The translations under genes were made by a program, and so were the position numbers. The notes below the pieces were generated by a model. It was not told the origin of the DNA and ran no database searches. It saw only the letters and a list, made by a program, of their open reading frames with translations. From Escherichia coli (GTDB taxonomy: Bacteria; Pseudomonadota; Gammaproteobacteria; Enterobacterales; Enterobacteriaceae), in assembly GCF_045037415.1 (NCBI RefSeq), contig NZ_CP173438.1: DNA of 64,000 nucleotides; one strand, written 5' to 3'. This document shows, in pieces, positions 23,412 through 56,815 of the stretch; within the stretch, counting starts at the first letter, position 1; the number at the start of each line of letters is the position of its first letter.

Positions 23412-24089
23412 CTATTTTCCGATAAATTCAACGCTGGCGCCGGTGGCATTACCGTCAGCACCAACCGTGACGGTCACTTTGTCGTACGCACGGTCTTCAG
23501 GATTGAATACTTCAAACTCAACCTTATTGCCTTTTACTTCGTAAGAGCCAAAATCAGCGGTTTCTGTTGTTTCCTCGTCATATTCCCGGGCGTATGCCTG
23601 CCGGGCAGCCTGCAGGACGGAATCTTTATTAATAGTGGTCGTCTGTTTCGGGGAAAAACCGGCAAGTGATGTGACAAATTTCGGACAGACCTTCAGCATA
23701 TCACCGCGGGTGAATTCCATTCGTACACCAAATGCCTGTAAAACGGACACATCACGCTCTGCTATGGAGTGAACGGCTTTTTTGACCATTTCCGGCGCCT
23801 GTCCGATTTCCACCTCAACAGCCCTGAATCCCGTCTGCTGATTACACATTTGTGATGTGGGGATCAGGTTACCGTTAATACTGATACGGCTGCCCAGGAG
23901 CGTCTGTACACCATTCGGGCATCCCTGCATCAGGCCAGTAATACCAATCGTGCCATTTTTCAGCATTACCAGCGCCTGACCATCTTCCGTCATGGTCTGA
24001 CACCAGCCGTTTTTGACAGCCCAGTTGCCGGCGGAGGCGGAGAATGATGCCACAGTGAACAGCAGGGGAAAAAGAGCTCTGGTATTCAT
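23412..24089 (-). CDS. secreted hypothetical protein with signal peptide (about 225 aa)
   Basis: Start placed at [20 protein letters not shown] (signal-peptide-like); ATG at 24087-24089 verified on sequence. Confidence 0.5.
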
Positions 24090-24236
24090 GACTGACCTCT
24101 GAAATGAACGTACGGTGTTATTGATAATGATGGAAGGTATGCAGTGACTGTTCAGGGAATGACGTAGCCGTATATTTAGTTTTCTGTTCAACATATTGTC
24201 TCCATACCTGTCGGGACGGCTTTGGCAGGCCGGCGA

Positions 24237-24917
24237 TCACAGGTTAAAGGTGTTGATAAGTTTATGGATGAAAGAGAAATGTGGCAGGGCGGAGATAAAA
24301 CGCTCTTCAGCGACCAGACTGTGGATGTGGCCTCTCCGTTCAAACCGTTCTGATGTCAGGCTGACTGATTTGATATCTGCCAGAGGAAAGACCTGCAGTT
24401 TTCCCTTCTGTAACGCGATCAGATACCAGCTACCGCTGTAATAAATGAGCCGGCAGGGCTCCAGTGACGGATACCATCGCTCAGTCATCAGAGAGATGTG
24501 GATACACTGTCTTATTGCCAGGATGAGTTGCGAGAAACACTCGGGGAACGTTGCAGTGATATCCGGCGCCGGTAGCCAGATAAGGCAGGGAGAGGGCTCC
24601 TGGTTGTCGGTAAGACAGGTTATCAGTCGTCCGTTCCGGAGCGGAAGTATCCGTGCGATCCCGGTATTCTGTATAAAAGAAAGCATTTCAGGGATCGCAC
24701 CTGGGCTGCTCTGTCGTCTGAGACTGTACCGGCCATTTCTGTACTCTAAGTCCAGGTGAACCAGACGCTGATGAAAATCGCGCTGTAAGGTACGTTCTGT
24801 AACACCAAATTCATCTGACAGTGTTTTTAGTGACAGAGATTCTCCGGCCATCAGTCGGCTGATAATGAGTGATAAGCGAACCGCCAGGCGATCATGCCGG
24901 GAACGATTATCAGACAT
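24237..24917 (-). CDS. WYL-domain transcriptional regulator (YfjR-like), 226 aa
   Basis: N-terminal HTH (LSLKTLSDEFGVTERTLQRDF) and C-terminal ...GSWYLIA... WYL-type segment. Confidence 0.7.
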   Translation of the reverse strand: MSDNRSRHDRLAVRLSLIISRLMAGESLSLKTLSDEFGVTERTLQRDFHQRLVHLDLEYRNGRYSLRRQSSPGAIPEMLSFIQNTGIARILPLRNGRLITCLTDNQEPSPCLIWLPAPDITATFPECFSQLILAIRQCIHISLMTERWYPSLEPCRLIYYSGSWYLIALQKGKLQVFPLADIKSVSLTSERFERRGHIHSLVAEERFISALPHFSFIHKLINTFNL

Positions 24918-25119
24918 AGATGTGCACTCCGTAAGAAAACATCTTTTATTTCATGATGTTATTATGCATCATGATGTTGAAAGGATGTGTCGCATCCGAA
25001 TAATCAGAAATAAAATGCAGCAGAAAAAATATTCCTTTAATTATCTGATTTTTAAGCAGGGTTTCATAAAAAGAAGAATGCTTGTTAATCCAGCGACACA
25101 TCCTGTCGGCGTGAGTGTG

Positions 25120-26004
25120 TCAGAACAGACGATCCCACAGTGTGACCAGCAAGTGGATAATGCGGTCCCGGGCCTTACGCAGAAGCTGTAACATCCAGGC
25201 CGGAAAGCTGAATTGGGCAACGGCAGCGTCAAAGCTTTTCCCGATGGCGTCACCAAAAGTTTGTTGTGCGTGTTTCCGGGCCTGTTCAGAGCGGTTTTCC
25301 CCCCGGATATGTGAATAAACTGCGCTGGTTGCCTGTGGTGGCAGTGCGTGGATCATCAGCGACACCAGTGCCGGAAGATTCCAGCCGACAGGTGCGGCAA
25401 CGGAGAGTACCGGAAATGATGAAGGGAACAGGGTTGCCACCCGGGCTGTTACTGTTGCCAGTGAGAGTTCCTGCTGACGGGACGGGCATTTTTCTGTGTC
25501 GTTCCATTCTTCAGCAGGAAACACGCGATCGGCATGGCTGAGAACAAACAGAAAACGCGAGGGATCTGCACCTTCATTCAGTAAAAACTGATGCATGGCA
25601 ATATCGGCAGCATACGCACGTTCATCAGCCCGCAGGATCCAGATAATCAGATCCAGTTCCGGCAGTAACTGACGATAAAGCTCCCGGTATTCCTGATCAT
25701 GCTGCGGTGTCTCACCAATGCCGGGCATATCGACCAGCGTCATTCTGCGTTCACCGAGCTGCAGGGTAAGACGATGAGCCTGGCGGGTGCAGCCGTTCAG
25801 GGGATGCGTGGCGCAGATACGGGACTGAAAAATGGCATTACACAGACTGCTTTTGCCGGTGCCGGATTTACCCATAATGCCAATTACGGGCTCGTAATGA
25901 ATAACACCGTGGAGATGTTCAAGGATTTTCTGGCGAATTTCTTCAGGAAGAAACGTCAGATATGATTTTACTTGTGCAGAGAGGGAAGAATGGCTGAATG
26001 ACAT
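25120..26004 (-). CDS. YfjP/YkfA-like GTPase (294 aa)
   Basis: Walker A GKSGTGKSS and DMPG G3-like motif; first gene of the minus-strand cassette. Confidence 0.75.
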   Translation of the reverse strand: MSFSHSSLSAQVKSYLTFLPEEIRQKILEHLHGVIHYEPVIGIMGKSGTGKSSLCNAIFQSRICATHPLNGCTRQAHRLTLQLGERRMTLVDMPGIGETPQHDQEYRELYRQLLPELDLIIWILRADERAYAADIAMHQFLLNEGADPSRFLFVLSHADRVFPAEEWNDTEKCPSRQQELSLATVTARVATLFPSSFPVLSVAAPVGWNLPALVSLMIHALPPQATSAVYSHIRGENRSEQARKHAQQTFGDAIGKSFDAAVAQFSFPAWMLQLLRKARDRIIHLLVTLWDRLF

Positions 26005-26188
26005 ACCGGTATCCTGTTGATTTCGCTGAACCGGATCACACTAATCCGGTTTATCATTCAGGTAATATGGACGTGAAAAATGATGGAATGTCTGAATTAC
26101 GGACATGATTGTTAAAGTGTAATGGAGTATGAAGTGAGTTTTTCCGAACGGGAACTAATGACATACTGCGGTTTCAGGAGATGAGAGG

Positions 26189-27319
26189 ATGACCGGACGT
26201 AAAAACAAATGTGTCAGAAAAAATTGTAACAATCAGGTTTTCTCAGTAAAAATGGCAGTGGAGAAAAGACTGTGCAGAAAACATTATGAGAGGTTTTGTG
26301 AGCTCAAAAAAAGAAGAGAGCAAAATCCTGTTCACAGATTAAATGAAGCATTGCCAAGAAAGATAAAAGGACCAAAAAGTAAGAAAAAATTAGTAAAAGA
26401 AAGAGAAATCATTAACAGCAGAAAAAAACATAAACAGGAGCAGGGACCATCGCTGACTGAACTTAATAAAAAAGTTCGTGAGATACTGAAAACTCCTGCA
26501 TGGAGAACGCTGGAAACGAGAATTCGAAGAAACGGAATCACATTTAAGTCAAAAGCAGAGTTAGATGCGCTTTCTGAACTTTATGCAATTTATTCATGGG
26601 TTTCATATTGCAAACGGGGCGATAATTATTCTGTGTGGTTTTTGAATTGTCCGGATGTAAATATAAACCTTCATGTGTGCGAATGCCGGTCTTCTGAAAG
26701 CGATTGTTATCTGCCATCTCGTTTTATTATTCTTCCAGCTCCATTAAGGCAAAAAGTAAAAAGAAAATACTCTGCTAATTCGTCTGGGGTACCAGGACAT
26801 AATGATTCAAAAAGTCTTTATAAGACAGTTTTGTCTGTTTGTGGTGGGAAAAGAGAAACCGAAATGTTCTTTTATTCATTGCCAGTAAAGACTAATCATC
26901 ATCCTTACTGGATTAAAAGTGGTGTGGTTAAAAGATTCCCTCCTGTTTTTGGTTTGTTGTTTTATGAACAGGAAAGATTAACAGGAGGTGTTTTTCGTTA
27001 TGTGTTGATAAGATTTTATAATACTTTTAAAGAGAATTTGTTTTTTGTTGAGATTGTATCGTGCTGTTTTCTTGTTGAGCTTTTTCATGATATTGATTCA
27101 TTTTTTATAAATCAACGATTAAGTAAGCTGGAAAGTTTTATAGATAAGTGGAGGGAGGGTAAAGAAATCTGGATAAAAGTATATTTACAACTGATACATA
27201 CTATATTGGGAATAACTGAAACAGAAAAACTCGTCAATCTATATAATTCATTTTTTACTGATAAAGTGGTTCTCTGGGATGAATCAGTAAAAAAAGTTAA
27301 GTGGATTTATGAGAAATAG
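26189..27319 (+). CDS. orphan hypothetical protein, Lys-rich with Cys-rich N-terminus (376 aa)
   Basis: AT-rich ORF; N-terminus CVRKNC...CRKHYERFC suggests a zinc-ribbon; no family recognised. Confidence 0.45.
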   Translation: MTGRKNKCVRKNCNNQVFSVKMAVEKRLCRKHYERFCELKKRREQNPVHRLNEALPRKIKGPKSKKKLVKEREIINSRKKHKQEQGPSLTELNKKVREILKTPAWRTLETRIRRNGITFKSKAELDALSELYAIYSWVSYCKRGDNYSVWFLNCPDVNINLHVCECRSSESDCYLPSRFIILPAPLRQKVKRKYSANSSGVPGHNDSKSLYKTVLSVCGGKRETEMFFYSLPVKTNHHPYWIKSGVVKRFPPVFGLLFYEQERLTGGVFRYVLIRFYNTFKENLFFVEIVSCCFLVELFHDIDSFFINQRLSKLESFIDKWREGKEIWIKVYLQLIHTILGITETEKLVNLYNSFFTDKVVLWDESVKKVKWIYEK

Positions 27320-28817
27320 TACCATTTAACTGAAAGCCACCATAACGTCTTTTTGACTACATTTATGATAATGCGTCTCATTTTGTTTTCGTTTTTTTGT
27401 TCAGGGAAATTTTCCGAACATCAGTGATAATGAGGGTTTTGTTGTTTTTGCTTCTGCAATGTTTGAGGACTGTTCCTGGAGACGATTCGTTGCTTGTGAG
27501 CAAGAGGTGGTCCGCTTTACTGGACAAGTTTTGCATTTGTTGAGTGGTGAAATGGAAGTAAAAAGAGCCCCTTTCTGGCAATGGTTGAAAAAGTCAGTAG
27601 CGTGTGACAGTAAAAGCTAACATAAAGTGATTATCGTATGATTATGACAATGACTTATAACTTTTATGAAAAGAACAACAGAAACTACGAAGCCATAGCA
27701 GATTCCTGAGACCATGTTTTCTGAGGTAGAGAAAATAATTCCAGAGTAAATCTGTTCTGTTTTTAGGACAGAAAACTCCATGTTGGCTGTAAAAGTGAAA
27801 AATTAACACCCAGTATGTATGGAAGTCTGAAGATGTTGAGAATGTCGGTATGATACTATATACACATATTTTACTAAGTATTTTTACTAAGCATTTCAGT
27901 AAGTGTTATACACGTATTTTCATAAACACTTGTAGAAGTGTTTTCGTTAAGCATTGCTATACACATCCAGTTTAGTAAATCTTTACGTTAACTAAATCAG
28001 TTTAATGCTGCTGTAAAACCTTTCTGCTTCAGCAATCAATCTGCTATTCGATTTTACTGATGTTACGTTTAACCTTTCCTGAGATTTCGAGTTTTGAAGT
28101 TAGCATGAGAAAAGTATCTTTACGCTAAATCAACCCGAACTTTCCTGAAGTAATCTGACGTTCTTTTCGATGTGCTTACGACGATTCTGTTAAACGACTT
28201 TCTGGATGTTTTGATAACAATCAGATTGAGGCATTAACGATTCCTGACGTTTTCTTTTCCGTGTAAGGTCATTCTTTTTGTCATGAGGTTTCTTCTTGCA
28301 TTGCGAAAGTGTGATGAACGGTTTTGATATTTTGATTCAGATGAGGTTTACGTTATCGCAGTTAATCGTTTTTATGGTGTGTTGAAAAGTAACGTTTTCA
28401 GGATAAGAAAATCGATTCTGATATTGGTAGTTTTTGTTCTTGTGGTGGGGTTATCTGTAAACAGGTTTTAAGCGCGCTATTCGGCTCTGTGATCGAGTTG
28501 TGTGGTTAAGCTGTAGGTTTGGTGTTGTTGTTGATTTGCATTGCCAGGAAGCGTTCTGGTTGTGTTTCTGGTGTTTTGTTCGAATGTTCAGTGGATCCTT
28601 TCCCTTCTGACTTTTCTCGTCGTCCATGTCGTTTTTAAATCCATTCATGCCGTTGTTTTACGTTTTACTACCGTGTGCAGGATTATCTTTTCGCTGCGGG
28701 ATGGTTTGTTCCGTTCAATCAGGAGCCATTGGTGTTGCTCAATGGTGAAATACCGTAAAGTTTTACCGCGGTGATGAATGATGTGAAGTCAATCCAAATC
28801 AACGGAGATCTCTCATC

Positions 28818-29549
28818 ATGAATCAATCAATACACAATGCTTACTGGTTATCCCGCTTTGAAAGTATTCTCAACAGTGCCCTGGCGCAACACCGTGCCGT
28901 CTCGTTAATCCGGGTGGATTTACGTTTCCCTGAGTATATGCCTGTCACCATCATGGATCCCGATCCGGATTCAGCGGTGATTTCTCGTTTTTTCGAATCC
29001 CTGAAAGCCAAAATCCAGGCTTACCAGCGGAAAAAACGGCGTGCCAACAAGCGTGTGCGCGCAACCACTCTGCGTTATTTCTGGTGTCGGGAGTTTGGCA
29101 AGGAAAAAGGCAGGAAACATTATCACGTGATATTACTGCTCAACAAAGATACTTGGTGTTCACTCGGGGATTTCAGCGAACCGTCTTCGCTGGCGACGAT
29201 GATCCAACAGGCATGGTGCAGCGCTCTGCATCTTGAGTCCTGGCAAGGCGATGGCCTGGTCCATTTTTCCAGGAGGACGCCTTTCCGTAAACCAACATCG
29301 TCTGATGCTCGCCCTTCTTCCGATGATACGCCTGTGCCTGGTGGATGTTCTGAAACCAGGAAGGTTTCAGACAAAAAGTCTGGTGAAGCCGCTGTTCTCT
29401 GGATCAAGCGTGGTGATGTGGAAGCGATGCAGAAAGCCCGGAACAGAGCCAGTTATCTCGTGAAAAATGAAACGAAGTTGCATGATGGTTCAGGTCAACG
29501 TAATTATGGTTGCAGTCGTGGGCCGGGGCGTCTACTGGATGGCAGGTGA
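28818..29549 (+). CDS. YagK/YfjJ-family (inovirus Gp2-like) protein, 243 aa
   Basis: Resembles YfjJ/YagK paralogs (LIRVDLRFPE..., KHYHVILLLN); SD ggag 10 nt upstream. Confidence 0.7.
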   Translation: MNQSIHNAYWLSRFESILNSALAQHRAVSLIRVDLRFPEYMPVTIMDPDPDSAVISRFFESLKAKIQAYQRKKRRANKRVRATTLRYFWCREFGKEKGRKHYHVILLLNKDTWCSLGDFSEPSSLATMIQQAWCSALHLESWQGDGLVHFSRRTPFRKPTSSDARPSSDDTPVPGGCSETRKVSDKKSGEAAVLWIKRGDVEAMQKARNRASYLVKNETKLHDGSGQRNYGCSRGPGRLLDGR

Positions 29550-29876
29550 ACCCTGTAAAACAGCATCCGATGCCTGAGTTTATGCCAACGCCCTTAGCTC
29601 GCTTTCTGAAAAGTCGTCCTGAAGTAATGCAATGGATTGCCATCTACTTCCGTTCGTGACACATAAGTCGAAAAACGTTTGGTTGTTCTGGTTATTTGCA
29701 TTTACTGCCATTCATAGAAATGAACAGATCGATTGGTAGGACTCAAATGTTATAGCGTCTCTCTTCTCATAGTCTGCTTTGTACCAGACGCGGAATCCCC
29801 TAATGCTGGTGTACAGGTTCTGACTCATTTCCTCCCCCACTTTCATCCCGTTATACTGTGAAAAAAGGAGGTAGGC

Positions 29877-30119
29877 GTGAAACTGAAAATGCAGGATTTG
29901 AGGCTGTTTAATATCGTGTTCGAGAGCGATCCTGGCTGGATACTGGATTTCTCTAACCGCACCTTGTCTGCTTTTTTCGATGAAGAATTGAACATTGATA
30001 TTGATGATGAACGTTATCAGAAAGAGGGGGCGTCAAAAGCCAAACGAGTTAGATGCTTGCTGAAACAGGTTGATCGTGAGAACCGCTCTGCGGGTTCTTG
30101 GTGCGCTCTGGCAGTATAA
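29877..30119 (+). pseudogene. possible N-terminal fragment of frameshifted Mrr-like gene
   Basis: 80-aa ORF ending where the downstream endonuclease-like ORF begins in another frame (overlap 30070-30119). Confidence 0.3.
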
Positions 30120-30756
30120 AACGGAATCCATGCCTGAACAGGCTGAACAAAGCCGTAATGACTATCTTGCACTGATTTCCCGCTTAGAAAACGCTGACAC
30201 CGATGAAGCCAAAGGCGTTAAGCCTGTCCAGGCATGGCATGGTGTTGACTGGCATTCACTTATCGCTGAAATGAACGAGATGAAATCTCTGCCGCCACAT
30301 CCACGTGGTTTTCGGTTTGAAGCCTGGCTTGCTGAACTGTTCAGTATCTTTAAGCTTGCTCCTCGTTCGTCTTTCCGAAATACAGGAGAACAGATTGACG
30401 GAAGTTTCCGGCTGAATGATGAATTTTACCTGATGGAGGCAAAGTGGCATCAGAAAAGAACGTCGGCTGCCGACCTCCATGTATTTGAAGGAAAACTCAG
30501 TACCAAGGCAACCTGGACACGCGGTGTTTTTATCAGTTGGATGGGGTTTACGCCTGAAGGCCTGACGGCTTTTGGTAAAGGGAAGCGGGTTATCTGTGTC
30601 AGTGGTTATGATCTTTACCACTCACTGAATCATAGGATCCCTTTACCCGACCTTCTGGATGCTAAAACCCGGCACGCGGCTGAAACGGGAGAGCCCTATG
30701 CTGAGTTCGACCGACTATATGCACTGAAAGACAAACAGTTCGGCACGCTGAAATAA
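30070..30756 (+). CDS. restriction endonuclease-like (Mrr catalytic domain) protein
   Basis: PD-(D/E)xK-like pattern GEQIDGSF...LMEAKW...GVFISWMGF typical of Mrr-type nuclease domains; possibly frameshifted relative to the 29877 ORF. Confidence 0.5.
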   Translation: MIVRTALRVLGALWQYKTESMPEQAEQSRNDYLALISRLENADTDEAKGVKPVQAWHGVDWHSLIAEMNEMKSLPPHPRGFRFEAWLAELFSIFKLAPRSSFRNTGEQIDGSFRLNDEFYLMEAKWHQKRTSAADLHVFEGKLSTKATWTRGVFISWMGFTPEGLTAFGKGKRVICVSGYDLYHSLNHRIPLPDLLDAKTRHAAETGEPYAEFDRLYALKDKQFGTLK

Positions 30757-30770
30757 CGGGTTGGGAAGCG

Positions 30771-31363
30771 ATGACCTGCTCCCCGTTGTTTCACACAAAA
30801 TCGTGTACAGGGTCGAAGTTCTGGCTCAATGTGCTGGCTGAACTGAAAAACAGCGGCCTGAACGATATCCTTATCATCTGTGCAGATGGCCTGAAAGGCT
30901 TCCCAGATGCCATCAACACAGTATATTCGGAGACCCACATCCAGTTATGCATCGTGCATATGGTGCGCAACAGTCTGCGCTTCGTGTCATGGAAGGACTA
31001 CAAAGCCGTCACTCGCGACCTGAAAGAGATTTAATCAGGCACCCACGGAAGAGGCAGGCTAGCAAGCACTAGATAAGCCGACGCTGGCAGGCTAACTGGC
31101 CGAATCTTACTACGTTCTTCGCTTATCTGACGGACATCCGCAAAGTGATCTATACGACAAATGCCATCGAGTCACTAAACAGTGTGATCCGCCATGCGAT
31201 CAAAAAGCGTAAAGTGTTCCCGACAGACGACTCGGTGAAAAAAGTGGTGTGGCTGGCAATCCAGTCTGCGTCCCAGAAATGGACAGTGCCATTGAAGGAC
31301 TGGCGTATGGCAATGAGCCGCTTTATTATCGAGTTCGGTGACCGCCTGAACGGTCACTTCTGA
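30771..31363 (+). mobile_element. IS256-family (mutator-type) transposase remnant
   Basis: Two ORF fragments (LKGFPDAINTVY...LCIVHMVRNS and ...TTNAIESLNSVIR...) match conserved IS256-family transposase segments; internally deleted. Confidence 0.65.
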
Positions 31364-53300: not shown

Positions 53301-53550
53301 TACTGCCAGCTTTGTGGGAAGAGAGGGCTTTTTCCAAACGCTCCAACAGCACCTGCTCGGCATTCACACCATGCAGTTTATTCAGTTTGTGCCAGGCATC
53401 TGGCTGGGTGGCCTTTACCCAATCCATGACATCTTGCGGGTAAAGGGCGCGTTGCTGGTCATAGTGGCAGGAATGGCCTTCTTTCCAGCCATTGTTCACC
53501 AACTGCTCGGTAATATATTGTTCAAAATGCACTTCATGATGTGCAGCCAT
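50314..53550 (-). CDS. hsdR: Type I restriction enzyme R subunit (1078 aa)
   Basis: Helicase motifs: Walker A EHSAGSGKT and DEAH-box variant IIDEAHTS; N-terminal nuclease-type region; start overlaps hsdS stop. Confidence 0.9.
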   Translation of the reverse strand: MAAHHEVHFEQYITEQLVNNGWKEGHSCHYDQQRALYPQDVMDWVKATQPDAWHKLNKLHGVNAEQVLLERLEKALSSHKAGSKTGGTINVLRKGFTIAGCGTIAMGQRKPEDARNEERIARYEHNILRVVRQLKYCPTREWEIDLVFFINGLPVATAELKTDFTQSLESAIAQYKEDRLPVDPKTKRKEPLLTFKRGAVVHFAMSDTEIAMATKLAGENTYFLPFNKGHDGSTSDLPVHINLPGEDGEYPVSYFWQEIAQKDNWLRIFYSFVYVETKEVADSNGKVERKETQIFPRYHQLAAVNKMIDDARQNGAGMQYLCEHSAGSGKTSTIAWTAHDLIRLRSTDGKAVFKSVIIVTDRTVLDSQLQDAVQQLDHQYGVIKAIDREKSSESKSKQLTEALLTGTPIIVVTIQTFPYALEAILTNQSLAQSNFAVIIDEAHTSQTGSTAKGLRAALTLNLSPQELEQMSIEDILTKVQEARAMPKNVSHFAFTATPKHSTKMLFGRPKDPNQPVSDDNLPESFHLYTQRQAIDEGFILDVLENYTHYDTAYKIGENNLDEKRVDSKQARRALARWMSLHPTTVSQKVEFIIKHFKANIAHLLEGEAKAMVVTSGRPQAVKYKLAFDKYIKKHGIEGIQALVAFSGKVPGKDLGDEDSQDPLEIDFDKEYTEYNLNPDTHGADLRHEFEKTEYRVMLVANKFQTGFNQPKLVAMYLDKKISDVEAVQTLSRLNRTYPGKDTTFVIDFVNDPQTILNAFKKYDKGAQLNEVQDVNVIYDIKDILDEQNIYNHQDLELFKQARGKSILGQSPDKKSHAHKKLLAATQRPTDVFNVKLKELVDAANHWDQQYNKAHLAGDEKAANYAESQRSDFTKQREALMRFKSDLARFVKHYSYMAQLIEFGDPELENFAAFAHLLSRRLKGVTPENIDLSALVLEKFKIKYDKEPLPEAFNQVLEPIRPNYNDPADREQAFLADIIRRLNELFGDVGDEPGRRNFANGTITRVTQNPIVVEQIEKHDKSIALKGDLPQAVKQAVVQALLKEGDIARTLLKDPQVMASYVELIFDMMKQGAEQAAVK

Positions 53551-54836
53551 TACACCGCCTCCCTGACGTCTATTTTTCCTGTGACAGCCGCGTTGATCAG
53601 CGATGTGCGGTGTTCTTTTAGAAGATCAATCGATTTATCAGTCTCTTGAATCAGTAAATCAATGTTTATCGTTGCTGCACTCAAGTAATTCGTTATTGTC
53701 TTTTGCTCATCAATTGGTGGGATAGCAATACTTGTATTAGCTAGTGAAGGAATGCTCAGGTTGTAGTTACCTACCGATGTTCTTGACTGAAATGTTAATG
53801 CTTGACGAACAGATAGTGAGTTCATCGCTTCCACTAAGAAGCTAGTATCCACTCCTTGCTTTGGTGTTAACTTTATTAGGTACGACGCAAATAAATACTG
53901 CCCATTTGAATCAAAAAGCGCGCTTTGGCCGACCAGATTAGGGTTACCGTTAGTTCTGATGACTAAAATGTCGCCTCTTGATAAAAGATAAGTTAAAGCA
54001 TCAACATCACTGATATTTGCATATTTGAGATCTTCAAAATCAACATTGGTACTCTTGATGTTTGGTATCCTGAGAACAGGATAGCCAACATCAGACTGGT
54101 TACAGTCTTGAGAGGTTCCATACATAAAGTTGGAGCAAATATGCTTTATCTTTTTGACTTCCCAATGCTTCGGCACTTGCCCAATCCACTCGATGCCAGA
54201 GTCCTGCATCTCCACATTGGGATAGAGCCCCTTTGTGACCACATGGCTGATCAGTGCTTGGCGTTTTTCTTTGAGCAGCTTAATAAAGGTCTGCTTTTCC
54301 TCGATCAGACTGTCGATGCGCTGGGTTTCGCGATCAAGGAATGTGCTAACCTGCTTCTGTAATGAAATATCAATCAGTGGAACAGGTATTTCTAAAAGAT
54401 CACCAGCTGTTAGGTTCTGACGAACTCCTCCACCCAGTTTGTTATAAATATTGGTTAGGTATAGAGCAAAAAAGTACCAGTAATAGAACCTTGGGTAGAT
54501 GCTATTTGAACTCGCTGAAACACGGATGTATGCAGGGCTCATTATTCCTCGTTCATGCACAATCCCCACTCGGCTAGTCTTTATATTTTCAAGATCTATG
54601 AGCTTAAAAACTAAGTCATCTTTTTCAAAAATCTGATAAACAGAGTAATCAGAAGATTGAAGTCCTTGTAAATCGTCTAACGAGCGGTTTATGACACCTT
54701 TCATTGTTAGTGCAAGACGATTAGATTCTTTCATTCCTTGATTGATTTCTTTGCTACTCGTAAATAAACGTTTAGCTGGTACTGAGTTCCATTTCGAGTC
54801 AGATACGAAAGCATCTACTATGTTGCCAGCATTCAT
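53550..54836 (-). CDS. hsdS: Type I R-M specificity subunit (428 aa)
   Basis: Two target-recognition-domain halves separated by conserved coiled-coil-like regions (LQKQVSTFLDRETQRIDSLIEEKQTFIKLLKEKRQALI); start overlaps hsdM stop. Confidence 0.85.
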   Translation of the reverse strand: MNAGNIVDAFVSDSKWNSVPAKRLFTSSKEINQGMKESNRLALTMKGVINRSLDDLQGLQSSDYSVYQIFEKDDLVFKLIDLENIKTSRVGIVHERGIMSPAYIRVSASSNSIYPRFYYWYFFALYLTNIYNKLGGGVRQNLTAGDLLEIPVPLIDISLQKQVSTFLDRETQRIDSLIEEKQTFIKLLKEKRQALISHVVTKGLYPNVEMQDSGIEWIGQVPKHWEVKKIKHICSNFMYGTSQDCNQSDVGYPVLRIPNIKSTNVDFEDLKYANISDVDALTYLLSRGDILVIRTNGNPNLVGQSALFDSNGQYLFASYLIKLTPKQGVDTSFLVEAMNSLSVRQALTFQSRTSVGNYNLSIPSLANTSIAIPPIDEQKTITNYLSAATINIDLLIQETDKSIDLLKEHRTSLINAAVTGKIDVREAV

Positions 54837-56815
54837 TACGCCACCTCATTCAGCAGAGCCTGAATGCGCGCTTCACATGCTTTTAGCTCACGATCAATCA
54901 CACTCAACTCGCGTGGTGGCACGTATTGGTAGAAATAGCGGTTAAAGTTAATTTCATAACCGACAATGCCCACTTCGCCGTCTTTTTCATCACGCACTGA
55001 GTGATCAATAAAGGCATCCGGTACATGTGGCAGCACCTCTTGTGCGAAGTAATCTTCAACGTCGCGGTCAAAAGGAATGCTTTCGGTGTCTTTGAGTTTA
55101 GGGTCGGCGATCACTTGGCCTTTTTCATCCAGTGCAGGCTCAAATTGCGGATCAATTTTTACAAAGTGCGCAGTTAAGGCCGTAGCCAGTGCTTTTGAGC
55201 ACTTACCAAAGTCACCCTTATTGTTATTCTTCTTAACCGCCAAACGTGCCCATTCATAAGGCTGAAGGCCAAGGTTATCGGTGAGGTATTGTACCCATGC
55301 CGCTTGTTGCTCTGGTTTGAGTTTTTTAAACGTATCTTGCTGCACAAATGCAGCAATGCCCGCAGCGGTAATATCTAGTTTGGCACGCAGTGGACGCTGA
55401 ATGGTGACTTTACGGTAGGCAAAATCAGTAGTCTGGAAGATCTTACAGTTGTCACTGGCTTCAAAGCCATCGTACGCACGGACAATATCGTCAATCTGTT
55501 CATCACTCAGGTACTTGCGCTTATCGCCTTGCGATTTACGCATGGGAGTCCAAATATCTGCCAAGTTAATCAGTTGCACCTGATTCTTGCGTCTTGGCTC
55601 TTTATGGTTAGTCAAAATCCAGATGTAGGTGCCAATGCCGGTGTTGAAGAACATATCGGTTGGCAGGGCAACAATCGCTTCGACTAAGTCTTGTTCTAGC
55701 AGCCAACGGCGGATTTCTGATGGGCCTGAGCCTGCATCGCCATTAAACAGTGGCGAGCCAGAAAGGACTATACCCACTCGGCCACCACCATTTTCTGGCG
55801 TTTCCATTTTTGATACCAAGTGCAGTAAAAACAGCATTGAACCATCAGAAATACTCGGCAGGCCTGGCCCAAAGCGTCCGGCGTATTTGAGCTGTTTGTG
55901 CTCACGTTCTACTTCTTTCTTGGCTTTTTCCCACTTAATGCCAAATGGCGGGTTGGCAAGGCCGTAGTGAAACTTGTCGGCACGTAACTGATCGTCTGAT
56001 AAGGTGTTGCCTTGCTTGATGTTATTGGCATCAAAACCGCGGATCATCATATTGGTCAGCGCCATGGCATGGGTCGCGGGGTCGAGCTCTTGACCAAAAG
56101 GCACGACTTTAGCGCTGCTGCCCATTTCTTCAATTTGGCTAATGGCATCGGAAAGGAAACCGCCCGTGCCACAGGTTGGGTCATAGATGGTGCGGATCAC
56201 ACCCTTTTCACTAAAGATATCTTCATCCGCCGCCAGCACCAGTTTGGTGGCAAGACGCACGGCATCACGCGGGGTCATAAATTCCCCGGCCTTTTCATTA
56301 ACCGAACTGGCGAACTTTAGAATCAGCTCTTCATAAGCATCTGATAATACGCGGTCAGACACTACATCAGGATGCAAGTCGAGGTTGGCAAAATGGTTTA
56401 CCATGCGATACAGCAACTTGGCTTTTTCCAGATCTTCTATGGTTTGACCAAATTTAAACTCATCAAAGATGGTACGAACGTTTTTGCTGAACTGGCTGAT
56501 GTAGTGTTCTAGGTTGTCGCCGGTGTCTGACGCGCCTAAGGTTTCTAGGCTATATTCACTGGTGTTGTAAAAGGCGAATCCCGCAATTTCTGGCAACACT
56601 AAACCAAGGTCTATGCCGGATTGTTTTTCGGCCAGATAGAACTTACGAACTTCCTCACGGGTGGGTTCTAACACGCATTCAATACGACGCAGTAGCAAAA
56701 ATGGCAGGATAATCCGCGCAAAATCGGTGTGTTTGAAATCACCCCATAAATCATCTGCCATACGCCAAATAGCACTGGAGAGTTTGGCGCTTTGTTCTTT
56801 GTCTTGTAAGTTCAT
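54836..56815 (-). CDS. hsdM: Type I R-M N6-adenine DNA methyltransferase subunit (659 aa)
   Basis: SAM-binding DPTCGTGGFL and catalytic NPPF (GLANPPFG) motifs; unusually long for HsdM. Confidence 0.9.
   Translation of the reverse strand: MNLQDKEQSAKLSSAIWRMADDLWGDFKHTDFARIILPFLLLRRIECVLEPTREEVRKFYLAEKQSGIDLGLVLPEIAGFAFYNTSEYSLETLGASDTGDNLEHYISQFSKNVRTIFDEFKFGQTIEDLEKAKLLYRMVNHFANLDLHPDVVSDRVLSDAYEELILKFASSVNEKAGEFMTPRDAVRLATKLVLAADEDIFSEKGVIRTIYDPTCGTGGFLSDAISQIEEMGSSAKVVPFGQELDPATHAMALTNMMIRGFDANNIKQGNTLSDDQLRADKFHYGLANPPFGIKWEKAKKEVEREHKQLKYAGRFGPGLPSISDGSMLFLLHLVSKMETPENGGGRVGIVLSGSPLFNGDAGSGPSEIRRWLLEQDLVEAIVALPTDMFFNTGIGTYIWILTNHKEPRRKNQVQLINLADIWTPMRKSQGDKRKYLSDEQIDDIVRAYDGFEASDNCKIFQTTDFAYRKVTIQRPLRAKLDITAAGIAAFVQQDTFKKLKPEQQAAWVQYLTDNLGLQPYEWARLAVKKNNNKGDFGKCSKALATALTAHFVKIDPQFEPALDEKGQVIADPKLKDTESIPFDRDVEDYFAQEVLPHVPDAFIDHSVRDEKDGEVGIVGYEINFNRYFYQYVPPRELSVIDRELKACEARIQALLNEVA

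Follow-up and report, generated by a model that had tools for sequence, protein, structure and literature searches.

A 376-amino acid protein (WP_000147748.1) and about 1.5 kb of AT-rich DNA immediately downstream of its gene are the subject of this analysis. They lie side by side on a genomic island within a 64,000-nucleotide stretch of the Escherichia coli contig NZ_CP173438.1 (assembly GCF_045037415.1), which was analysed as a whole and is called the window below. To the left is a divergently oriented gene for a YeeP-like GTPase. To the right, beyond the AT-rich tract (positions 27320-28817, within which RefSeq annotates nothing), is a gene for a 243-amino acid protein of the inovirus Gp2 family, referred to here as the Gp2-type gene. 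We found nothing in the published literature on either the 376-amino acid gene or the tract. Our analysis indicates that the gene is a real, functional component of the island backbone, and that the tract is genuine non-coding DNA made of two units that differ in how widely they occur. The coordinates of the main features are collected in Table 1.

The 376-amino acid open reading frame (ORF) is preceded by an AGGAG ribosome-binding site 10 nt upstream of its ATG, and its pN/pS (the ratio of the proportions of non-synonymous and synonymous sites that differ) is 0.13-0.21 against four close alleles. Compared with a more distant allele that is 80% identical, pS is 0.27 and pN 0.10. A first-pass annotation, made from the sequence without database searches, had described this ORF as Lys/Cys-rich, with a zinc-ribbon-like Cys cluster at its N-terminus, a highly basic first third and no recognisable family, and all of this proved accurate. 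Lysine and cysteine make up 11.7% and 3.2% of the protein, the N-terminal cysteines are at positions 8, 13, 29 and 37, and residues 1-125 have an isoelectric point of 10.85 (39 Lys and Arg versus 12 Asp and Glu). The protein has no match in Pfam, NCBIfam, PHROGs or PADLOC. For Pfam this holds for the whole protein, for an N-terminal profile (E ≤ 10) and for all 19 family members searched singly. A profile of the finger motif gave no hit in a sequence search of the PDB at E ≤ 10, and no anti-phage defence model in PADLOC-DB v2 matched the protein at E ≤ 1 or the neighbouring cargo proteins at E ≤ 0.01. The AlphaFold2 model (predicted local distance difference test, pLDDT, 79.5) has no match to a known fold. 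The homology search and structure prediction that had been proposed as a check returned a diverged family, but neither a known function nor a known fold.

The term 'orphan', which had also been applied to the gene, is too strong. Homologs were recovered from two large protein collections, 18 among 5.8 billion clustered proteins and 19 (five of them full-length) among 1.84 billion representatives, with 30 found by profile search; full-length homologs are 80%, 38% and 30% identical. Those that could be named are all from Enterobacteriaceae (E. coli, Klebsiella, Enterobacter and Atlantibacter), and fold-level relatives occur in Salmonella, Providencia, Serratia and Citrobacter. The GTPase gene is the neighbour in every related locus that we examined. 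A 383-amino acid Klebsiella homolog (30% identity) occupies the same slot: the GTPase gene points away from it on one side, and AlpA and a Gp2-type gene follow downstream. A 37% identical homolog (P0021) is placed in the same way. In other E. coli islands the slot holds either a 407-amino acid protein or proteins of 310-320 amino acids that have no N-terminal finger. These match the 376-amino acid protein with BLASTP E values of 1e-5 to 8e-3 (8e-45 to the Klebsiella protein) and have in common with it the motifs AW..T..R, ILP..LR.KV, SLY, P.F.L...E..RL and LYNSFF. At the DNA level, a nine-locus alignment places the edge of the conserved backbone about 80 nt from the GTPase start (26002-26081 is 96% identical in loci L018-L020) and the alleles diverge beyond it, so this is a fixed-position, hypervariable backbone gene and not an orphan. 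The 376-amino acid protein is thus one allele of a small, fast-diverging, Enterobacterales-restricted family that in islands of the CP4 type is always transcribed away from the YeeP-like GTPase gene. In the K-12 islands CP4-57 and CP4-6, neither the gene nor the non-coding module described below has a counterpart at the DNA or protein level, a phage collection gave no match to the sequence under study, and among plasmids there were only 4 E. coli records. Islands with the finger-less 310-320-amino acid allele carry a convergent family of 222-283-amino acid genes (Table 1), which is related to a 322-amino acid Enterobacter gene; the C-terminal part of one of its members weakly resembles the RepA replication regulatory protein, with a score that does not reach the curated cutoff (E=7e-5).

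In nine finger-bearing sequences C8, C13, C29, H32 and Y33 are invariant, with the four putative zinc ligands at fixed spacing. The motif is duplicated in one homolog (P0033), and most family members carry it together with the basic linker. Because a Cys-Cys-Cys-His finger is combined with a very basic linker, these features suggest that the 376-amino acid protein binds nucleic acid, and it is plausible that it acts as an island-specific regulator of the island's own promoters or control regions.

The ORF-free, AT-rich DNA that the first-pass annotation had noticed downstream of the gene is indeed present and exceeds chance expectation. The tract contains no ORF of at least 80 amino acids on either strand (the largest are of 77, 67 and 65 amino acids), and no other such stretch in the window is as long. 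At 0.359, the GC content of 26082-28817 is in the bottom 0.5% of equally long segments and compares with 47% for the window overall; it ranges from 0.33 to 0.41 across 26001-29000 and is 0.33 in 27001-28000. The tract had been treated as one piece following the gene, and this missed the fact that most of it is a common backbone element attached to the HUH Rep-like (Gp2-type) gene. A distant BLASTN search of 5,426 complete E. coli genomes found the first 412 nt only in genomes that have the 376-amino acid allele, and 444 genomes matched at least 80% of the tract. The remaining 1,086 nt, which we call the module, occur in 1,879 of the same genomes at approximately 73-100% identity, unannotated save for an occasional small 'hypothetical protein' call. 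The cassette-bound flank and the widely found module together define two units, a cassette (approximately 26084-27731) and the Rep-like gene's own 1,086-nt module. The left edge of the module is sharp, falling at AAATAATTCCAGAGTAAATCTG in ten loci with four different sets of upstream genes, and homology continues to the right into the Gp2-type gene.

The module contains 414 T versus 268 A and shows three kinds of internal region. Near its left end are direct repeats, with three TATACAC boxes 48-51 nt apart in the window; the length of this region varies by strain through gain and loss. Further right is a segment of approximately 300 nt (296 nt) that four loci replace with about 1.16 kb carrying a minus-strand gene for a 176-amino acid protein (L004 6787-7317) that matches no known family. 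The segment is a small point of exchange within the non-coding module. The last 80 nt before the Gp2-type gene stand apart: their mean pairwise identity is 97% and their columns are almost all invariant, and similar sequence lies upstream of Gp2-type homologs in Enterobacter and Serratia. We presume this to be the promoter/operator of the Gp2-type gene. A local, imperfect 9-bp hairpin (TCTGTTCTG/TAGGACAGA) is found at 27752-27776, 20 nt inside the left boundary of the module, and its sequence varies between allele groups.

Table 1. Features of the 376-amino acid gene, the tract and their surroundings (window coordinates unless a locus is named).
Feature	Position	Strand	Details
376-amino acid gene, WP_000147748.1	26189-27319	+	'Hypothetical protein' in RefSeq; ATG start; N-terminal Cys/His motif, basic linker, mostly helical domain
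Putative zinc finger, residues 8-37	26210-26299	+	KCVRKNC-x15-RLCRKHYERFC; conserved ligand residues
Backbone part of the divergent intergenic region	26005-26083		Kept in islands with different genes to the right; homology stops after caggtaatatggacgtgaaaaa
Allele-specific 5′ region of the 376-amino acid gene	26084-26188	+	Includes ribosome-binding site; cassette types diverge from ~26084
Non-coding 3′ flank travelling with the 376-amino acid gene	27320-27731		Cassette-specific; BLASTN across genomes
Backbone non-coding module joined to the Gp2-type gene	27732-28817		1,086 nt; GC 0.37; T-skewed; mosaic between strains
Variable-number direct repeats	27858-27966		Each headed TATACAC(R)T; repeat search, TRF, alignment
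Replaceable middle segment	28347-28641		Loci L004, L019, L020 and L021 match only 27732-28346 and from 28642 onward
Near-invariant proximal region, presumed control region	28738-28817	+	GTAAAG/TTTTAC (imperfect inverted TTTAC pair) and ribosome-binding site; alignment
Gp2-type gene (inovirus Gp2/YagK-YfjJ family), 243 amino acids	28818-29549	+	RefSeq 'inovirus Gp2 family protein'; HUH-endonuclease motifs
YeeP/YfjP-like GTPase gene	25120-26004	-	ORF; RefSeq 'GTPase family protein'; leads the leftward yee-module operon, divergent from the 376-amino acid gene
Convergent 222-283-amino acid family genes	L005 2310-3164; L006 2671-3459; L003 4774-5445	-	Islands with the finger-less slot allele

Outside the proximal region, the tract changes quickly. 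Jukes-Cantor distances from the module to eight other copies are 0.11-0.26, compared with a dS (synonymous divergence) of 0.17-0.27 and a dN (non-synonymous divergence) of about 0.05 for the adjoining Gp2-type gene (dN/dS ~0.2). Measured against the 80% identical allele, sub-blocks of the tract have p-distances (proportions of differing sites) of 0.07-0.30 and the three flanking genes have pS values of 0.15-0.27; for the 3′ flank the p-distance is 0.15-0.16 versus a pS of 0.27 for the 376-amino acid gene. Among islands that have the 376-amino acid allele, the module is the least conserved segment (76-87% identity, against 92-99% for genes). Taken together, the tract evolves at about 0.5-1 times the synonymous (neutral) rate, and since the module alignment is visibly mosaic these ratios are rough. 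One block, 27405-27731, was considered as a constrained element because it is 97-99% identical among close alleles, and it was rejected when its p-distance reached 0.16 in the 80% allele.

Near-neutral evolution and an abundance of indels are also what a decayed gene would leave behind, and the first-pass annotation had named a decayed gene as one way to read the tract. In a fuller form of this idea, the tract would be what is left of one or several ancient cargo genes, decayed beyond recognition, between the GTPase and Gp2-type genes. The interval between these two genes is variable, with genes of 176, 222, 261, 283 and 270 amino acids found there in other islands, and the middle segment of the module alternates with a gene-bearing one. 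We nevertheless regard the proposal as rather unlikely. The tests for former coding capacity gave it no support. The variable alignment columns show no three-base phase or residual codon periodicity, 33 distinct indels are not multiples of three versus 6 that are in-frame, and no ORF is common to the strains. Every sampled allele (73-100% identity) is ORF-free, and no intact gene version exists in the 5,426 E. coli genomes. A tblastn comparison of the tract with twelve proteins from the equivalent interval of sister islands, and with AlpA, gave nothing but a match to a minus-strand mini-ORF (28451-28648), which is annotated as a 57-amino acid hypothetical protein in some strains and which we reject because it is frameshifted between strains. 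Two further candidates for small proteins, a hydrophobic 48-amino acid ORF (27397-27543) and a 53-amino acid ORF (27459-27620), were rejected as not conserved; a premature stop interrupts them in L014, as do single-base indels in L028, and substitutions judged by eye fit no frame.

A third possibility raised at the outset was non-coding RNA, and structured RNA finds no support here. With an E-value limit of 1, the covariance models of Rfam 15 found nothing in 27320-28817. When both strands were folded in 160-nt windows, the z-scores ran from -2.3 to +1.2 (all above -2.4), and RNAalifold run on ten aligned copies did no better than column-shuffled controls, except in the gappy repeat block. The tract might still be transcribed and act as RNA without a defined structure. 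It could form a long 3′ untranslated region of the 376-amino acid gene, serve the Gp2-type gene as a long leader, or be a small or antisense RNA. There is no intrinsic terminator after the 376-amino acid gene, and the only terminator-like site is a weak one at 28543-28560. The plus strand has more T than A and more G than C across gene and tract, as would fit long-term transcription in the plus direction, and the 97-99% identity of 27405-27731 among close alleles could likewise be taken as a sign of function. Set against this are the loss of that identity in the 80% allele, the lack of Rfam matches and of any consensus structure beyond shuffled columns, and a promoter scan that found 5 sites compared with 8.9 in shuffled sequence. 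We consider an RNA function very improbable. Given that there is no sign of a broken gene or of a structured RNA, the tract is best regarded as a largely ordinary piece of island backbone.

The Gp2-type protein to which the module is attached has all three motifs of an HUH endonuclease: motif 1 (RVDLRF), the HUH motif itself (HYHVILLL) and the catalytic tyrosine motif YxxK (YLVK). Its homologs carry the Pfam domains PF11726 and PF23343 (REP_ORF2-G2P / YagK_YfjJ_C), and searching genome contigs with the protein returned only two metagenome bins, of E. coli-like sequence. A second ORF-free tract (34016-35208; ~1.1-1.2 kb, GC ~0.32, T-skewed) lies directly 5′ of a second Gp2/YagK-type gene (35209-35775). 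It is the second-longest ORF-free tract of the window, its left end is truncated by an IS21 fragment, and it is conserved and unannotated in 1,709 of the 5,426 genomes. The two tracts have no sequence similarity. The recurrence of a long AT-rich tract in front of both Gp2-type genes hints at a role connected with the HUH gene.

Such a function might be that of a cis-acting site. On this proposal, the module would be a rolling-circle origin, nick site or transfer site with Rep-binding repeats, on which the HUH endonuclease acts to allow replication of the excised island. The module is always attached to the HUH gene whatever lies upstream, and it contains the variable-number TATACAC repeats. 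In a widespread class of islands, Gp2-like genes are listed among the functions that are likely to be core (PMC12595487). The words TTTAC, TTACGTT and TATACAC are over-represented in the tract, but the enrichments are weak given the number of words examined. Other observations fit poorly. We found no hairpin or inverted repeat above chance, whether the sequence was folded as DNA or as RNA: the five best-conserved blocks gave z-scores of -1.84 to +0.23 when folded as single-stranded DNA, and the best inverted repeats have arms of 13-19 nt with 74-93% complementarity, mostly hundreds of nt apart. With neither a long inverted repeat nor a fold signal, a long hairpin of the kind that serves as a single-stranded DNA promoter was also rejected. 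Origins are usually better conserved than this module, which diverges near-neutrally, shows no conservation above the neutral rate apart from 28738-28817 and a few short blocks, and has an exchangeable middle of 300 nt. Moreover, only 150-450 nt precede the Gp2-type genes in Klebsiella, Providencia, Enterobacter and Serratia and yfjJ in K-12, which excludes a general rule that genes of this type are preceded by long tracts and means that the long tract is not a requirement of the family; nor do the two long tracts in the window share a common sequence. For these reasons, we think it unlikely that the module is an origin or nick site. A bolder version, which we hold to be quite improbable, would make both ~1-kb tracts origins or nick sites of Gp2/YagK-type proteins, so that the CP4-type islands carried by roughly a third of E. 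coli genomes would, once excised, be autonomous rolling-circle replicons or mobilisable elements, with the zinc-finger protein as an allele-specific control or incompatibility factor.

The explanation that we prefer, and to which we would give an even chance, is that a functional, hypervariable zinc-finger gene of the backbone is followed by a weakly constrained, AT-rich and probably H-NS-silenced spacer that ends in the control region of the Rep-like gene. In this model, the first 412 nt of the tract are the 376-amino acid gene's own 3′ flank and the remaining 1,086 nt are a backbone spacer belonging to the HUH Rep-like gene, of which only the last 80-100 nt, the presumed promoter/operator, are held tightly. 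The rest of the spacer drifts near the neutral rate, with repeats gained and lost and the ~300-nt segment in some cases exchanged for a gene. Binding of H-NS to the AT-rich tract would keep the Rep-like gene silent and insulate two divergent transcription units from one another. In enterobacteria, H-NS preferentially binds AT-rich, horizontally acquired DNA. An H-NS-family protein of 146 amino acids (WP_000038137.1; 32518-32958, plus strand) is encoded by the island itself, 3.7 kb downstream of the tract, and the presence of this paralog is consistent with H-NS silencing.

Several observations weigh against this explanation. Matches to the H-NS consensus (tCGATAAATT-like, at most two mismatches) occur at 0.67 per kb in the tract versus 1.06 per kb in the window. 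Because the consensus motif is not enriched, the argument for silencing is one from AT-richness. Of the readings put forward by the first-pass annotation, silenced DNA is the most plausible; the base composition fits it, and the binding-site prediction does not. Neutral DNA is normally deleted in bacteria, and here approximately 1.1 kb with a fixed left boundary is retained in a third of E. coli genomes. A second, unrelated AT-rich tract of about 1 kb that is equally widespread precedes the other Gp2-type gene, and recombination mosaicism blurs the comparison of rates from which weak constraint is read. As to the protein, its proposed role is argued from motif and charge, and the finger is absent from the 310-320-amino acid alleles.

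In a large proportion of pathogenic E. coli, islands of the CP4 type with a 'yee module' are located at tRNA genes, and much of their backbone is functionally uncharacterised. Our analysis resolves one 'hypothetical' annotation as an allele of a fixed-position, fast-evolving zinc-finger family, and assigns about 1.1 kb of unannotated DNA, present in a third of complete E. coli genomes, to a HUH Rep-like gene as non-coding sequence. Should the tracts be regulatory spacers under silencing, the biology is routine for an island. If instead they are the sites at which the HUH proteins act, they would explain the persistence and movement of these 'cryptic' elements.

The island itself is integrated at selC. 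Several E. coli chromosomes match the region 26000-29000 at 100% identity, among them that of strain 219 (NZ_CP020514.1), in which the locus belongs to a ~47-kb island between setC and tRNA-Sec that adjoins a tyrosine integrase gene; in the window this corresponds to ~16.2-63.1 kb. In two genomes (NZ_CP082120.1 and NZ_CM151390.1) a copy of IS1B is inserted within the 26000-29000 query interval. RefSeq places the attachment tRNA, tRNA-Sec (selC), at ~62977-63071 on the minus strand beside the integrase; ARAGORN reported no tRNA in the whole window. To the left of the 376-amino acid gene, RefSeq annotates on the minus strand the genes of the yee module: the YeeP-like GTPase, a helix-turn-helix (HTH) regulator, DUF905, DUF932, antirestriction, RadC/JAB, DUF987 and CbeA/CbtA. 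This module has been described as a variable backbone related to CP4-44 (PMC11537424). The only Rfam hit in 24000-31000 is a weak match, probably due to chance, to c4-a1b1, the target of C4 antisense RNA (24193-24236, plus strand; 18.6 bits versus a gathering score of 46.7, E=0.4). It falls within the yee module, between the gene for the HTH regulator and the one that follows. Further to the right, the selC island contains a gene for a mobI(A/C) 'conjugative transfer protein' (~45856-46242; NZ_CP020514.1 77786-78172), suggesting that plasmids of the IncA/C type may be able to mobilise part of this composite island. Its neighbours are a RhuM-family gene and a complete type I restriction-modification system (~48766-55267).

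Parts of this locus resemble systems that are better understood. Some HNH endonucleases of phages and actinobacteria are preceded at the N-terminus by loops of the form Cys...Cys...LCxxHYxR, similar in shape to the finger described here, and a few structural neighbours of the 376-amino acid protein in AFDB50 are annotated as 'HNH endonuclease'. We treat this as no more than a lead. The protein itself has no HNH catalytic motif, no Pfam HNH hit and no PDB sequence hit. A functional analogy may be drawn with P2 Ogr and P4 Delta, small Cys-based zinc-finger activators of integrated P4-like elements that control element genes. However, there is no sequence or Pfam match to these proteins, the ligand spacing differs, and the 376-amino acid protein has an additional helical domain of ~300 residues. 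The intergenic region upstream of gene II in the Ff phages (M13/f1) is, like the module, a long non-coding region with short direct repeats located 5′ of a Gp2-family HUH gene. It differs in being built, over ~0.5 kb, of strong and conserved hairpins, whereas the tract contains none above chance and drifts near-neutrally. The gpII protein of Ff is ~410 amino acids long, compared with 243 for the Gp2-type protein. In the yfjJ-yfjP region of K-12 CP4-57 the interval between the Gp2 and GTPase genes instead holds AbpAB and RnlAB, the two backbone genes are co-oriented, and both the 376-amino acid family and the module are missing. The resemblance lies in the surrounding gene set (Gp2/YfjJ, the YfjP GTPase, DUF932, antirestriction, RadC and the CbtA/CbeA toxin-antitoxin pair) and in the variability of that same interval. 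Finally, most described targets of xenogeneic silencing by H-NS are AT-rich genes with their promoters, in contrast to the non-coding tract studied here, in which the consensus motif is not enriched. What the tract does have in common with such targets is horizontally acquired DNA of 36% GC in a window of 47%, a long intergenic stretch and an H-NS paralog encoded by the same island.

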